Assembly: GCA_020725385.1 (NCBI GenBank)
Contig: DYFC01000018.1
Location: 1 to 45,823 of the forward strand
From: Nitrospira japonica
GTDB taxonomy: Bacteria > Nitrospirota > Thermodesulfovibrionia > Thermodesulfovibrionales > SM23-35
Length of the DNA: 45,823 nt
Direction: 5' to 3'
The notes under the pieces: generated by a model
What the model saw: the letters and a program-made list of their open reading frames with translations, nothing else
Database searches by the model: none
What the model was told of the DNA's origin: nothing
Program-made: the position numbers and the translations under genes
In this document: one piece after another, positions 2-3,722 of the stretch
Layout of the letters: each line of letters begins with the position of its first letter
Position numbering within the stretch: position 1 is the first letter of the stretch

Positions 2-1015
2 AAGGTTGGTTCAATAATGGGCTCTGGCGGAATGGTTGTAATGGATGAAGACAATTGCATGGTTGATGTAGCAAAATTCTTTCTTTCATTCACGCAGGCA
101 GAATCATGCGGAAAATGTCCTCCATGCAGAATAGGAACATACCAGATGCTTCAATTGCTTGAAAAAATTACATCTGGAAAAGGAGAAGCAGGAGATATTG
201 AGAGACTTGAAAAGTTAAGCTGGATGGTGAAAAGAGGTTCATTATGCGGACTCGGACAGAGTGCACCAAATCCTGTTCTAACTACAATTAGATATTTCAG
301 GGAAGAATATGAAGAGCATGTATATGATAAATATTGTCGCGCAAAAGTCTGCAATATAGGACTCTTTTTCATAGATCATAAAGAGTGTATATTGTGCGGT
401 CTTTGTAAACAAGTATGCGCTTTTGACGCTGTTAAAGAGACGAGAAGAAAATTTTTTATAGATCGTGAATATTGCACAAAATGCAAAGCATGTTATTCGG
501 TTTGCCCTGTAAATGCTGTAAAAATTACAAAAGCTGGATATGCAAGGCTCGAAGAAGAATTTAGAATACCAATTGAAGAAATAGATAATATAGAAAGGAG
601 GCGCAAGATGACCCTTAAAGATATTCTGGATTCAAGACCATATGAAATTATTAAAATTAATCGTTATTGCAGCATTGCTGATGCTATTAATCTAATGAGC
701 GAAAAAAATGTAAGCGGTATTTTTGTAGTTGATGAGAATGATAAACTCGTTAGTATTTTCACAGAAAGAGATATTGTAAGATGTGTTTATAATGGAACTC
801 CAACTGATGAATTGCTTGAAAATCTAATAATGAGAGATATTACCACATTTGACCCGACAACCAAAGTAAGTTCAGCTATTGCTGTTGCTACAAGAAAGAA
901 AATAAGGCATCTGCCTGTTGTAGAAGGTGATAAGATTATAGGAATGATTACTTACAGAGACTTGGTTTCTTATCTTTTGCCAGAGGTCTGTTATATGGCA
1001 GAAACTATGTACTAA
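2..1015 (+). CDS. NuoF/HydB-family NADH-binding flavoprotein subunit, C-terminal part (N3 cluster, Cys3His site, 2x[4Fe-4S]) fused to a tandem CBS pair; 5'-truncated by the window edge
   Basis: Frame is open from base 2 ([22 protein letters not shown]). Motifs: [12 protein letters not shown]...[35 protein letters not shown] and [15 protein letters not shown] motifs SIFTERD and HLPVV..GMITYRD. Confidence 0.9.
595..610 (+). promoter_or_regulatory. Internal Shine-Dalgarno AAGGAGG with in-frame ATG (608) at the start of the CBS module
   Basis: gaaAGGAGGcgcaagATG: SD at 595-601, 6-nt spacer, ATG at 608 in frame with the ORF. Confidence 0.5.
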
Positions 1016-1053
1016 GAAAGTAATGAGCAAAACAAATAATCTGGAGATAATTT

Positions 1054-1662
1054 ATGGATGAAGTTAAACGAATAGATGATAAAGAGAAGAAACTCGAGGA
1101 TATAAAAAAAGAATCAGAGAATAAAAAATGCCCTGTTCAGAGAATGCTTTACTATATGGAACAGTTTATTTCAGGTCCCATGTGTAGCAGATGTTTTCCA
1201 TGCAGTCTTGGTACCGCTGAAGCAAGAATTAGATTACAGAAGATTTCTGAACATGCAGAAACTGATTTAAAGGATATTGAGGTCTTAAAAAGAATTGGGT
1301 ATATGATGATAGAAGGCTCTTTTTGTAAGAAAGGAAAAGATACAGGGAAATTTATTATAGATTTGATTAATTCAACAGAAGAAGAATTTAAAAACCATAT
1401 CACCGGAATTTGTTCTTCAACTGAATGTACAGCACTTGTTGAATATGTAATTGACCCTGAATTATGCACAATGTGCGGTGAGTGCCTTAATGTTTGTAAG
1501 GAAAACGCTATCTTGGGTGAGAAGAAAAAACCTTTTCATACTGGTTATCTCCCTTTTGAAATAAGAAAAAAGAGATGTACCAGGTGCGGTGAATGTATAA
1601 AAATATGCCCGACAGGCGCTATTAAGATAAATATTTTACAGCATGAATTTGTGGAAAAGTAA
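1054..1662 (+). CDS. Stand-alone NuoF/HydB C-terminal-like Fe-S protein (N3-like cluster plus 2x[4Fe-4S]); no FMN/NADH domain
   Basis: CSRCFPCSLGT...SFCKKG; HITGICSSTEC; CTMCGECLNVC; CTRCGECIKICP; GGAG SD upstream. Confidence 0.85.
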   Translation: MDEVKRIDDKEKKLEDIKKESENKKCPVQRMLYYMEQFISGPMCSRCFPCSLGTAEARIRLQKISEHAETDLKDIEVLKRIGYMMIEGSFCKKGKDTGKFIIDLINSTEEEFKNHITGICSSTECTALVEYVIDPELCTMCGECLNVCKENAILGEKKKPFHTGYLPFEIRKKRCTRCGECIKICPTGAIKINILQHEFVEK

Positions 1663-1694
1663 AAATATCTATTTAAAAATACAGGAGGTTTTAA

Positions 1695-3722
1695 ATGGAA
1701 GAAGTCGTAAAAATTAATATAGATGGCAAGGAAGTTGAGGTTCCGGCCGGGATTAATCTTATAGATGCTGCTGAGAGTGCTGGAATTCATATTCCAAATC
1801 TTTGTTATATGAAAGGCATGAAAGGTGTCGGAGCTTGTAGATTGTGTCTTGTTGAAGTAGAAGGATTAAAGGCTCCTGTTATTGCCTGTAACACAAAAGT
1901 AAGGGATAATATGGTTGTCAAAACAAAGACCGAAAGAGTTCAGGAAGTCAGAAAATTTGTTGTTGATTTACTTCTTTCAATGCATCCGCTTGACTGTATG
2001 ACCTGTACAAAATCTGGTATTTGCAATCTTCAAAAATATGCTTATGAATTCGAATTGAAAGAGTCCTCTTTTACACGTAAAAAATTTGGTTATCCTGTTG
2101 ATGCAGCAAATCCATTTATAAAGCGTGACCCGGATTACTGCATTCTTTGTGGTAGATGCGTAAGAGTATGCAAAGAACAGGGAACAAGTGTGCTGGATTT
2201 CATGGGAAGGGGAATTGAATCAAAAGTTGTGACAGCGAATGATAAGCCTTTGCAGGAATCCGAATGTACTTTTTGCGGAAGTTGTGTTGATGCATGTCCT
2301 GTGAATGCTCTGCTTGAGGCGGACAGATGGAGAAAAGGAAGAGAATGGGAATATGAAAAATATGACTCTGTTTGTATGCTATGTGGCTGTGCATGTGATA
2401 CAAAAGTTAGCGTAAGACAGGGAGAGATACAAAAAATAAACTCAGGAGTAGAAGATGGTTCTGTGGAAAAATATCTCTGTGCATATGGGAGATTCGGTTT
2501 TGACAGTCTTAGATCAGAATCAAGATTGCCGGTTCCATTAAAAAGAGTTAATGGCGAACTAAAAGAAACAACATGGGAAGATGTGCTGAAAATAGTTTCA
2601 AGAAAGCTGAAAGAAGCAGGAAAAAATACCTGTATTATTAGTTCGGCATCAATTATGAATGAAGATGCTATTACTCTTAAAGGATTTGCAAAAGAAGTAG
2701 TAAAAACTAAAAATATTGATACAACAATAAGTTTATATGCAACTACAGATGTTTTAAAGAATTCGAGCAAAGCAAGTATTAATAACTCTGATTTGATTAT
2801 CATGATAGGTCTTAATCTATCACAATGGGACAGGGTTCTCCCTGCTATCGATGCAGGAGTAAGAAAAAGGGTAAATAGAGGAGCAAAACTCATTGTCATA
2901 AACGAGGCAGAGACAAGATTAAGTTCTGTGGCATCAATTAACCTTAAAGGAAATGAGATTGAGATTATTAAGGCTATAATTTTTGCCCTTAAACAAAAAG
3001 GAGCAAAAATCAATAAACAAACAGAAGAATATCTTTCAAACGTTCAAGGAATTACAGAGGAAATTACAAAATCTGCTGAAATGATTTTAAACGCCAAATC
3101 TTCTTTAATACTTGTGTCTCCTGTACTTTTCAATGCTGCATCAAATATTGCCTTAATTAAAGGAAATATAGTTGCAGCTCACCCAGAATCTAATGCTCGT
3201 GGAATAGCATTAGTAGGAATTGAAACAGAAGGTAAAACATATGCAGATATGACAAAAGGCGCTACTGAATTGCTTTATATAGTAGGAAATGTACCTTTAC
3301 AAAATAGACCGGATACAGATTTTCTTATAGTTCAAAGTTCATATATGACCGATCTTGTGAAAAATGCAGATATAGTTCTTCCAGCCGCAGAATATCTTGA
3401 GACTTCAGGCACAATGATTGACTATACAGGAAGAATCAAACATTTAAACAAGGCAATCGATTCTTACGGAGAATCAAAGAGCCATAGGGAAATATTCAGA
3501 GAAATCTCAAAGAGTATGGGTACTATATTAAAGATGCCTGTTGAATCAGAGATTAAAAAAGCAGCTAATATAAAAACTAAAATTTCTGTTATGCCTTTTG
3601 AAAAAACACAAAATGTATATTTTGAACCAGAAAAATTTATTGAAATTATAAATCTCACTGTTATAAATAACTCAAGACTTTTATGGCTTGAAGAAGCTTT
3701 TGAAGTTGGAGCTGAGAAATAG
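1695..3722 (+). CDS. NuoG/FdhA-like Fe-S subunit with degenerate, shortened molybdopterin-oxidoreductase domain
   Basis: [2Fe-2S] NLC..GACRLC..AC; HPLDCMTCTKSGIC; CILCGRCVRVC and CTFCGSCVDACP; CMLCGCAC...YLC; ADIVLPAAEYLETSGT; SD AGGAGG. Confidence 0.88.
   Translation: MEEVVKINIDGKEVEVPAGINLIDAAESAGIHIPNLCYMKGMKGVGACRLCLVEVEGLKAPVIACNTKVRDNMVVKTKTERVQEVRKFVVDLLLSMHPLDCMTCTKSGICNLQKYAYEFELKESSFTRKKFGYPVDAANPFIKRDPDYCILCGRCVRVCKEQGTSVLDFMGRGIESKVVTANDKPLQESECTFCGSCVDACPVNALLEADRWRKGREWEYEKYDSVCMLCGCACDTKVSVRQGEIQKINSGVEDGSVEKYLCAYGRFGFDSLRSESRLPVPLKRVNGELKETTWEDVLKIVSRKLKEAGKNTCIISSASIMNEDAITLKGFAKEVVKTKNIDTTISLYATTDVLKNSSKASINNSDLIIMIGLNLSQWDRVLPAIDAGVRKRVNRGAKLIVINEAETRLSSVASINLKGNEIEIIKAIIFALKQKGAKINKQTEEYLSNVQGITEEITKSAEMILNAKSSLILVSPVLFNAASNIALIKGNIVAAHPESNARGIALVGIETEGKTYADMTKGATELLYIVGNVPLQNRPDTDFLIVQSSYMTDLVKNADIVLPAAEYLETSGTMIDYTGRIKHLNKAIDSYGESKSHREIFREISKSMGTILKMPVESEIKKAANIKTKISVMPFEKTQNVYFEPEKFIEIINLTVINNSRLLWLEEAFEVGAEK

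Follow-up and report, generated by a model that had tools for sequence, protein, structure and literature searches.

A Bfu/HydABC-type electron-transfer module probably forms the distal end of the CODH/ACS operon in a sulfate-reducing Nitrospirota bacterium

Analysis of a 45,823-nucleotide stretch of DNA from a sulfate-reducing Nitrospirota bacterium (contig C11:1-45823, hereafter the window; genome 96.6% complete) indicates that its positions 2-3722 are probably the distal end of a Wood-Ljungdahl carbonyl-branch (CODH/ACS) operon with the order acsE-acsD-acsC-acsB-cooS-bfuC-bfuB(CBS)-bfuB'-bfuA, followed by scpA. The bfu products would constitute a Bfu/HydABC-type module with the CooS-type CO dehydrogenase as third partner, coupling CO2/CO to NAD(H) and ferredoxin. 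How costly the Wood-Ljungdahl pathway is in energy hinges on the source of the low-potential electrons that reduce CO2 to CO, which in the textbook account is ferredoxin alone. With a Bfu module connected to CODH/ACS, NADH would bear part of this cost or, alternatively, acetyl-CoA oxidation would yield both NADH and reduced ferredoxin.

The window opens with three plus-strand open reading frames, ORF1 (2..1015, open at its 5' end), ORF2 (1054..1662) and ORF3 (1695..3722), directly followed by scpA (ORF4, 3764..4516, Pfam SMC_ScpA). ORFs and Pfam domains thus confirm the three co-oriented genes before scpA described in the original prediction. The features of the module are as follows:

2..1015, plus strand: 3' part of bfuB, a HydB-like flavoprotein (337 aa) with a CBS pair at its end; 5' part off the window (Pfam, NCBIfam, homologues)
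65..319, plus strand: NADH_4Fe-4S (N3/B1 cluster) domain of BfuB (Pfam PF10589, 116 bits, residues 22-106)
368..523, plus strand: C-terminal 2x[4Fe-4S] ferredoxin domain of BfuB, the B3/B4 'bridge' (Pfam Fer4_21/Fer4_7, residues 123-174)
602..988, plus strand: CBS pair (Bateman module) fused to the BfuB C-terminus (Pfam PF00571, 82.3 bits, two stretches)
1054..1662, plus strand: bfuB', 202 aa, flavin-less copy of the HydB C-terminal module (Pfam; 7p5h_B alignment)
1695..3722, plus strand: bfuA, 675 aa, NuoG-like (Pfam, TIGR models, PDB matches, FdhA alignment)

The original prediction saw no catalytic subunit in view and inferred a soluble NAD(P)H/ferredoxin hub gated by energy charge, with an unknown partner; read literally, this is an orphan hub lacking any neighboring gene for a catalytic partner. 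The genes that come after the module in the window are indeed scpA and others unrelated to it. However, the window starts where contig C11 starts, so that ORF1 is cut at its 5' end, and window positions 1-113 recur exactly, in frame with ORF1, as the last 113 bases of contig C3. The upstream sequence, which the original prediction proposed to retrieve, reads acsE-acsD-acsC-acsB-cooS-nuoE-like-bfuB (5' part) in the tail of C3, with scores of 1022 bits for AcsB and 595 bits for CooS, and its CODH/ACS genes have the same reading direction as the module. The missing catalytic subunit is therefore an effect of the window edge. The orphan hub, already contradicted by this upstream sequence and by the conservation of the neighborhood, is highly improbable.

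The exact course of the junction can be approached through homologues. Protein P0001 (777 aa) aligns without gaps to the C3 ORF over residues 1-477 (93% identical) and to ORF1 over residues 441-777 (97% identical), and ORF1 is 95.7% identical to the C-terminal part of the 783-aa protein P0002. Some 2.3 kb are probably missing where C3 and C11 meet; most likely the genome holds two tandem bfuB copies, the window beginning inside the last one. Such tandem amplification of bfuB is seen in relatives. Directly after cooS, bfuC on C3 encodes a 162-aa NuoE-like protein (PF01257, 160.6 bits). We found no terminator-like plus-strand sites in the gap separating cooS from bfuC or in those separating the bfu genes, and no CooF-like ORF between acsE and scpA.

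Pfam identifies ORF1 as the 3' part of a NuoF/HydB-like protein with a C-terminal CBS pair, as originally proposed, while the C3 ORF contributes its FMN part (Complex1_51K, 146 bits) and an N-terminal [2Fe-2S] domain (PF01257 match at residues 24-101). An SLBB domain appears in the precomputed domains of BfuB homologues; at E<=1e-5, none was reported in the C3 ORF. In the translation of ORF1, Cys36, Cys39, Cys42 and Cys82 are the ligands of the N3/B1 cluster, the bridge domain carries two CxxCxxCxxxC motifs, and Cys19, His106, Cys112 and Cys117 are found at the positions of a putative Cys3His hinge site. BfuB thus retains the N-terminal [2Fe-2S], FMN, N3, Cys3His and 2x[4Fe-4S] sites, including the extra sites missing from non-bifurcating homologues, which lack clusters B2-B5 according to Schut et al. 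2022 (PMC9304861). All the gene features of the Bfu family are present, namely the BfuB domains, the extra BfuB sites, the adjoining NuoE-like bfuC and the BfuA cluster chain, and we infer from them that the module may carry out electron bifurcation.

The second flavin-less HydB C-terminal module noted in the original prediction is also recovered: in ORF2, Pfam detects an NADH_4Fe-4S domain (42 bits, residues 31-115) and a 4Fe-4S dicluster (residues 132-191), and no FMN domain. The protein, B', aligns to residues 466-625 of Thermotoga maritima HydB (7p5h_B, E 1e-22), including the H-x4-C-x4-C stretch, and contains an N3-like [4Fe-4S] domain, a Cys3His-type site and 2x[4Fe-4S]. Residues C26, C44, C47, C50, C91, H115, C120 and C125 and two Cx2Cx2Cx3C motifs are invariant in 30 B' sequences, with C26, H115, C120 and C125 at the aligned positions of the Cys3His site. 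At E<=1e-30, the B' gene is present in all 12 genomes of the window's own family and in 145 of the 401 Nitrospirota genomes searched, so that this form, with its distinct subunit set, is frequent in the phylum. In a paralogue of 899 aa encoded on contig C13, B' is fused to BfuB, and fused frames of about 900 aa occur in five other genomes. Because of these fusions and its wide distribution across the phylum, we consider B' a part of the module.

ORF3 (BfuA) aligns almost end to end with Nqo3/NDUFS1 chains and contains Fer2_4, NADH-G_4Fe-4S_3, two Fer4, Molybdop_Fe4S4 and Molybdopterin domains in Pfam. It has five cluster motifs: one [2Fe-2S], one His-ligated [4Fe-4S], 2x[4Fe-4S] and the Molybdop_Fe4S4 cluster. 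Of the 'NuoG/Fdh-like' label in the original prediction, only the first half holds. The protein scores 363.4 bits against TIGR01973 (NuoG), whose cut-off is 470.05. An assignment as formate dehydrogenase alpha subunit (FdhA/FdsA) was rejected, TIGR01591 giving 131 bits against a cut-off of 666 and the Molydop_binding domain (PF01568) being absent from ORF3 in Pfam. Tyr348-Ala349 stand at the position of Sec-His in the selenocysteine FdhA of the same genome (ungapped extension of the BLAST alignment), and Y348 is invariant in 23 NuoG-like sequences. Lacking the Sec/Cys-His dyad, the molybdopterin-fold domain of ORF3 is predicted from this alignment to have no pterin catalytic site.

Comparison with related loci shows that the genes are kept together. 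An ORF2 homologue is found in 33/33 related loci reaching that far, and in 0/43 loci with a generic HydB (51-56% identity). The neighboring cooS is also conserved: it adjoins the module in 20 of the 23 related loci with enough upstream DNA (both scans), and lies directly upstream of bfuC in all eight GTDB loci reaching that far and in five out of five further genomes of the same family with loci of sufficient reach (L102 there being the same contig as L013). In a distant Nitrospirota family, all 14 sampled loci have bfuC, bfuB, B' and then a stand-alone cooS on one strand, without acsB, with bfuA separating B' from cooS in 13 loci. The adjacency of cooS has therefore persisted although the gene order changed and ACS was lost. 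In the genome studied here, a paralogous locus on C13 encodes a NuoE-like protein, the BfuB-B' fusion and a NuoG-like protein followed by porG-porD-porA-porB. CODH/ACS upstream, the conserved adjacency of cooS and this paralogue beside POR lead us to identify the locus as a Bfu module serving CODH/ACS. The partner, left unnamed in the original prediction, is encoded directly upstream. What that prediction proposed for the module itself, a soluble NAD(P)H/ferredoxin unit of the HydABC/Bfu type bearing an additional Fe-S arm and a CBS pair, is supported.

Since the same module type also adjoins POR, the module may act as a general coupler between ferredoxin and NADH and not as a subunit of CODH. 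It would then be a free-standing, non-bifurcating NADH:ferredoxin oxidoreductase, co-expressed with CODH/ACS or POR and unbound to them, that balances the ferredoxin and NADH pools with B' as a dedicated ferredoxin-like acceptor. Such an enzyme would agree with the same four-gene module lying beside two different enzymes, with a BfuA devoid of a catalytic site, with the lack of a CooF-like adaptor and with the two loci (L043 and L049) in which neither cooS nor POR lies upstream. However, BfuB keeps every extra cluster marking bifurcating homologues (Schut et al. 2022, PMC9304861), the adjacency of cooS is kept through altered gene order, and the genome also encodes Rnf and an NfnAB-like pair, already available for balancing the pools. 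We regard this free-standing enzyme as possible, if rather unlikely.

The genome further contains an 11-subunit nuoA-B-C-D-H-I-J-K-L-M-N operon without nuoEFG on C31, away from the module, so that Rnf, the NfnAB-like pair and this Nuo offer other routes or docking sites. The NuoE/F/G-like proteins could accordingly be the detached NADH-input (N) module of this complex I, like the 'Nuo-Bfu' that Schut et al. 2022 (PMC9304861) predicted in Nitrospirae. The full NuoG architecture of ORF3, with its near full-length Nqo3/NDUFS1 matches, would fit, and the electron donor of 11-subunit enzymes is described as still open (PMC11238625). On the other hand, in the loci examined the module is never beside nuo, being next to cooS or POR except in L043 and L049, ORF3 falls below the NuoG cut-off, and two paralogous modules per genome would need to dock on one complex. 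An N-module is thus improbable.

Returning to a Bfu module that serves CODH/ACS, the combination, not recognized in the original prediction, has published counterparts: Schut et al. 2022 (PMC9304861) predicted Bfu modules both beside CODH and beside POR, and Codh-Bfu is an enzyme class proposed from genomes and never purified according to Feng et al. 2025 (PMC12318220). As in the present locus, the predicted Codh-Bfu ('CodhABCSF') has bfuABC clustered with a CooS-type CODH, and CO as third substrate beside NAD(H) and ferredoxin. The cases presented in these two papers are four Firmicutes sequences with a stand-alone CODH, a CooF (WorS-like) polyferredoxin and a Type 2 BfuA, which the authors define as lacking clusters A3 and A5. 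The present locus, by contrast, belongs to Nitrospirota, lies inside an acs operon, has no CooF and encodes a 675-aa BfuA with Molybdop_Fe4S4 and the molybdopterin fold, besides the extra B' subunit, the CBS pair on BfuB and, in relatives, the tandem bfuB copies. It is therefore a variant of the predicted Codh-Bfu, with a long BfuA, B' in place of CooF and an optional CBS pair. The terms 'CBS' and 'acetyl-CoA synthase' have zero occurrences each in the main text of Schut et al. 2022 (PMC9304861). The C13 paralogue has the genes of the predicted Por-Bfu together with porG-porD-porA-porB, although the cases published there come from Chloroflexi and syntrophic Proteobacteria, and the C13 BfuB is instead fused to B'.

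Among solved structures, the NiFe-HydABCSL of Acetomicrobium mobile (7T2R), the prototype Type 3 Bfu, also has a BfuA that is long and lacks a pterin site; 7t2r_A matches ORF3 residues 5-343 with 231 bits, and the HydB C-terminal module of 7t2r_B matches ORF2 with an E-value of 2e-21. Its partner, however, is a NiFe hydrogenase (HydSL), and it has neither a B' subunit nor a CBS pair. The FeFe-HydABC of T. maritima (7P5H) is the best solved match to ORF2; in it, a Cys3His site binds Zn as a 'hinge' and the C-terminal B3/B4 domain is mobile (Furlan et al. 2022, PMC9499530). It differs in having this C-terminal module within the flavoprotein and an H-cluster in HydA, whereas the second flavin-less copy is a separate protein here. 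No [FeFe]-hydrogenase (H-cluster) domain was found in the 96.6% complete genome. The top PDB match to ORF3 is an NfnABC/Stn transhydrogenase (9BOV, 8OH5): 9bov_A scores 237 bits, its best stretch aligning chain residues 564-1085 with ORF3 residues 99-589, including the molybdopterin-fold domain. The A subunit of NfnABC/Stn has an added NADPH/FAD (GltD-like) domain, which ORF3 lacks.

In the mechanism that we propose, the four bfu products would form a flavin/iron-sulfur module without a catalytic site of its own, with the CooS-type CO dehydrogenase, here within CODH/ACS, as third partner. The module probably links CODH/ACS to NADH and ferredoxin. CO2/CO would be coupled jointly to NAD(H) and ferredoxin by bifurcation or confurcation at the BfuB FMN, with electrons passing along the chain of BfuA clusters and the additional clusters of B'. 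As the E0' of CO2/CO (-520 mV; Schut et al. 2022, Table 1, PMC9304861) is below that of ferredoxin, bifurcation is sensible only at very low CO, as these authors likewise argue.

The CBS pair is conserved but optional. Its NCBIfam alignment spans ORF1 residues 201-329, and CBS-BfuB proteins are common, with at least 120 clusters. The pair is strongly conserved across 121 sequences (the window protein and 120 homologues), in which FTERD and a second stretch of ten residues are at least 95% conserved and h-h-T-x-R-D stretches are kept in both CBS motifs. Stretches of this type have a role in ribose binding, and CBS pairs often bind ATP. On the other hand, BfuB ends without a CBS pair in 12 of the 31 close-family metagenome loci (L027-L057), none being found elsewhere in those loci, and none was seen in locus L086 or in any of the 14 sampled loci of the distant family. 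Missing from many otherwise identical operons, the CBS pair is not essential to the mechanism. As an optional allosteric add-on, it probably binds a ligand of the adenosyl type (AMP, ADP or ATP, and perhaps APS or SAM).

The potential binding of ATP, together with an operon that the module shares with acsC and acsD, could also point to a RACo-like role: electrons of very low potential from the module would reductively activate the corrinoid iron-sulfur protein or the ACS A-cluster, and the CBS pair would couple this to ATP. However, the genome encodes a RACo homologue at another locus (345.7 bits), and this module type occurs with a stand-alone cooS, in the absence of acsB, in the 14 distant-family loci, and with POR in the paralogous locus. 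This is the least probable of the readings considered here.

For the Bfu module serving CODH/ACS, the CBS pair offers a specific regulatory hypothesis. It directly follows the mobile ferredoxin-like bridge domain of BfuB and, upon ligand binding, probably biases the movement of that arm. As a speculative extension, the CODH/ACS of Thermodesulfovibrionia could be a supercomplex with the Bfu module (up to three different BfuB and B'), which reduces CO2 to CO with NADH and ferredoxin jointly or splits the electrons of CO in reverse, its mobile ferredoxin arm being switched by an adenosyl ligand on the CBS pair (energy charge, or APS in a sulfate reducer). If true, flavin-based electron bifurcation would have its first allosterically regulated enzyme, and the Wood-Ljungdahl pathway would need less ferredoxin. 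In these metagenome-assembled genomes, the annotations 'CBS domain-containing protein', '4Fe-4S binding protein' and 'ferredoxin' mask parts of one conserved module.

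The three-gene feature at the start of the window is real, conserved and common, and gene context identifies its partner as a CooS-type CO dehydrogenase (CODH). ORF coordinates and Pfam domains agree with the original prediction in its description of the three genes, which encode the C-terminal part of a BfuB ending in a CBS pair (ORF1), a second BfuB-like protein, B' (ORF2), and a NuoG-like BfuA (ORF3).

Genes at the start of the window
2..1015, + strand: ORF1 (bfuB 3' part), 5' end open; 337 aa as seen, with PF10589 (116 bits), two [4Fe-4S] motifs and PF00571 (82 bits in two stretches)
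1054..1662, + strand: ORF2 (B'), 202 aa, with an N3-type domain (42 bits) and two [4Fe-4S] motifs; FMN domain absent
1695..3722, + strand: ORF3 (bfuA), 675 aa, with the complete NuoG cluster set and a molybdopterin-fold domain; Molydop_binding absent
3764..4516, + strand: scpA, starting 41 bases past ORF3

In the Pfam profile search, PF10589 of ORF1 is the N3-cluster domain of NuoF, and the N3-type domain of ORF2 is weaker (42 versus 116 bits). Among solved structures, ORF2 matches T. maritima HydB best (7p5h_B, residues 466-625, E 1e-22); next come B subunits from NiFe-HydABCSL, other HydABC enzymes and NfnABC. Thirty aligned ORF2 homologues share without exception C26, C44, C47, C50, C91, H115, C120 and C125 and two Cx2Cx2Cx3C motifs, and so retain all ligand positions of an N3-like cluster, a Cys3His site and a pair of [4Fe-4S] clusters. 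The Cys3His site of HydB is described by Furlan et al. 2022 (PMC9499530) as the Zn hinge of the mobile C-terminal B3/B4 domain. ORF3 scores under both model cut-offs (NuoG, 363 versus 470; Fdh-alpha, 131 versus 666). A formate dehydrogenase (FDH) reading of ORF3 was rejected on this Fdh-alpha score, the absence of Molydop_binding, and the presence of Tyr348-Ala349 where FdhA from the same genome has its Sec-His dyad, a placement based on extending the BLAST alignment without gaps. Y348 is shared by all of 23 NuoG-like sequences. Public annotations label parts of the module 'CBS domain-containing protein', '4Fe-4S binding protein' and 'ferredoxin'.

The window is the complete contig C11, beginning at base 1. 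Positions 1-113 of the window coincide exactly with the terminal 113 bases of another contig of this genome, C3 (24,809 bp), and the reading frame is unbroken over the overlap.

Tail of contig C3
One strand, short gaps: AcsE, AcsD, AcsC, AcsB, CooS, NuoE-like protein (bfuC product), N-terminal part of BfuB

AcsB scores 1022 bits against the alpha/beta acetyl-CoA synthase (ACS) model and CooS 595 bits. The BfuB part on C3 comprises the first 477 residues, with the N-terminal thioredoxin-like [2Fe-2S] and FMN domains, and a divergent operon lies upstream of acsE. The search for an upstream nuoE-type gene that had been proposed thus yielded a gene for a NuoE-like protein of 162 aa, together with cooS. 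The idea of an orphan electron hub, whose partner is not encoded nearby, falls with the same-strand acsE-acsD-acsC-acsB-cooS series and the in-frame overlap. A terminator scan gave no + strand terminator-like site from cooS to the nuoE-like gene or among the later genes, predicted promoter and terminator sites being no commoner than in shuffled sequence.

The order of C3 followed by C11 is sound, because the 777-aa protein P0001 from another assembly spans both parts gaplessly (residues 1-477 to the C3 ORF at 93% identity, 441-777 to ORF1 at 97%). The join itself probably skips one bfuB repeat unit of ~2.3 kb, as suggested by several sequence comparisons. Tandem amplification has given relatives one to three bfuB copies: one in L011, L012, L103 and L107, two in L009, L010, L014, L016, L017 and L106, and three in L104, while L013 (the same locus as L102) and L015 have a single bfuB and a stand-alone CBS-pair ORF. 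Between copies, long tracts are exactly identical at gene nucleotides ~1134-1662, in the N3-cluster region (528 bp in L016, 149 bp in L014); they look like gene conversion, and the 113-bp overlap of C3 with the window corresponds to bfuB nucleotides ~1319-1431, within this range. The N-terminal part on C3 is 93.0% identical to P0092 and only 68.9% to P0002, whereas the C-terminal part in the window is 95.7% identical to P0002 and only 72.0% to P0092; for both proteins, and for P0125, a homologue of ORF2, the longest contig listed measures 102,996 bp. The skipped unit is also indicated by L027, a 95-97% identical relative in which the tail of one bfuB copy precedes a complete second copy, ORF2, ORF3, scpA and fabF, and by assembly breaks inside the shared tract, of which there are three (in this genome, L008 and L027). 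Alternatively, P0001 could be a true recombinant single bfuB gene, with no repeat skipped. Logan contigs of four runs, aligned to window positions 1-3700, gave pieces of 176-1099 bases at low depth, none of them over positions 1-200. Operon content is identical whether one or two copies are read at the junction, and the flavin and NADH motifs are retained in every tandem bfuB copy examined.

A CBS-specific query against GTDB species genomes revealed 10 true relatives and nine weak loci. The latter (L018-L026), mostly Bacteroidota records, match only the CBS part, at 27-39% identity; they were taken for unrelated CBS proteins and excluded from every count. The true relatives are Nitrospirota-type MAGs, bar one labelled Nitrospinota. 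All 10 have the ORF2 homologue, nine have the NuoG-like gene (L010 stops short of its position), and acsB and cooS lie directly upstream of bfuC in 8/8 that extend far enough. When two scans were combined, giving 85 loci, the ORF2 homologue was found in 33; the nine close relatives without it all stop short of that point. At the thresholds used, none of the 43 generic-HydB loci, where BfuB is only 51-56% identical, carries ORF2, cooS or pyruvate:ferredoxin oxidoreductase (POR) genes, and one of them (L098) has a NuoG-like match. Of the close loci, 23 have 2.2 kb or more of sequence upstream of bfuC; there, 20 encode CooS, one POR (L056) and two neither (L043, L049).

At E<=1e-30, the ORF2 homologue is present in 145 of 401 genomes of the phylum, including 12/12 of the window's own family, only 1/14 of one family of the same order, and 46/64 of a distant family. 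All 14 sampled loci of this distant family (L111-L124) encode, on one strand, BfuC, BfuB without CBS, B' and later CooS, with acsB absent; in 13 of them B' and cooS flank the NuoG-like gene, which was undetected in L116. This arrangement is a monofunctional-CODH version of the same module. In L126, from another family, cooS is upstream instead. Past cooS, L111 carries a HlyIII-family gene and then pilMNOP. Conservation of the neighbourhood across the scans and the distant family thus points to the pairing of a CooS-type CODH with the four-gene module as the constant association, one that outlasts gene-order changes and does not depend on ACS. In a tree of 23 NuoG-like sequences, the Por-type or Por-like L057, L005 and L043 cluster at 100/100, while the fourth Por-type sequence, L056, has a long branch and is placed elsewhere, so that the POR label needs two changes on this tree, which does not show partner-specific clades.

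By domain content the module falls within the Bfu family definition, and BfuB clusters B2-B5, which non-bifurcating homologues lack according to Schut et al. 2022 (PMC9304861), are all present at this locus. The same paper predicts a Codh-Bfu from four Firmicutes sequences, in which bfuB and bfuA flank the gene for a stand-alone CODH and which is classed as Type 2, and a Por-Bfu from 12 sequences, and it leaves 17 clades with no function assigned; the CODH form was named CodhABCSF by Feng et al. 2025 (PMC12318220), with CooF as the wire. BfuA lacks a catalytic site, which calls for a third partner; with CooS as the conserved neighbour, we interpret the locus as a Codh-Bfu that forms part of the acs operon. 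It is a new form of this predicted, uncharacterised enzyme class, differing from the predicted Codh-Bfu in its lineage (Nitrospirota, not Firmicutes), its position in an acs operon, a long BfuA like that of the NiFe enzyme, B' in place of CooF, the CBS pair and the amplification of bfuB. 'CBS' and 'acetyl-CoA synthase' each have no occurrence in the main text of Schut et al. 2022 (PMC9304861), and literature searching turned up no account of a CBS-bearing HydB/NuoF or of the module in Nitrospirota acs operons.

In the proposed working of the module, NAD(H) would bind at the FMN of BfuB and ferredoxin at its mobile C-terminal domain, and BfuA, probably together with B', would carry electrons between CooS and the BfuBC core. 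Inside CODH/ACS, CO is a channelled intermediate. Coupling of CODH to NAD+ was argued by Schut et al. 2022 (PMC9304861) to be sensible at very low CO. The module could instead serve like RACo, the reductive activator of corrinoid protein, a reading weakened by the presence of a RACo homologue encoded elsewhere in the genome. The genome also encodes DsrAB, NiFe hydrogenases and RnfD, and no [FeFe]-hydrogenase domain was found in it, at 96.6% completeness.

Besides the acs-linked set, three further NuoE/NuoF-type sets are present in the genome (on contigs C13, C23 and C27), as well as a nuo operon on C31.

Paralogous sets and nuo operon
C13 (L005), 1360..9934, - strand: POR-linked set; NuoE-like, 899-aa BfuB fused to a B'-type module, 675-aa NuoG-like, porG-porD-porA-porB
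C23 (L006), 6214..12925: Glu_synthase-domain protein, NuoE-like, 538-aa NuoF-like, 866-aa FdhA-like with Molydop_binding
C27 (L007), 6847..11806, - strand: NuoE-like, 592-aa HydB-like, FdhA, then cNMP-binding protein and formate-THF ligase
C31 (L110), 5363..15826: 11-subunit nuoA-B-C-D-H-I-J-K-L-M-N operon without nuoEFG

The 899-aa BfuB on C13 has two NADH_4Fe-4S stretches and no CBS. Together with frames of ~900 aa of this fusion type in five other genomes, it suggests that B' is part of the same assembly as BfuB. The 538-aa NuoF-like protein on C23 is without a C-terminal ferredoxin domain, and this set resembles an NAD-linked FDH of the non-bifurcating type. The FdhA on C27 is broken by a single in-frame TGA within the motif CARY-U-HSS, likely a selenocysteine codon. 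On C31, the 49-kDa domain of the NuoD-like protein (492 aa) comes in two stretches that flank a 4Fe-4S motif (residues 323-345), and an NfnAB-like pair lies divergently upstream of the operon.

The CBS pair, at ORF1 residues ~200-337, comes directly after the bridge domain of BfuB, where the fused C13 paralogue has additional ferredoxin motifs and its B' module. Conservation is strong in both CBS motifs, and the pair is variably fused, stand-alone (L013, L015, L040/L041, L056) or absent, which argues for a modulator rather than a core part. A ligand-dependent effect of the pair on movement of the ferredoxin arm can reasonably be inferred. By analogy with other CBS proteins, in the discussion of which (PMC11887813) the idea originates, APS may be a further candidate ligand in a sulfate reducer, beside the adenylates of the original prediction. 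The stand-alone CBS-pair ORFs (~140 aa) lie within the bfu cluster in L013/L102, L015, L040/L041 (which look like the same organism sampled twice) and L056, where the ORF is located between bfuC and a CBS-less bfuB belonging to a POR-linked module.
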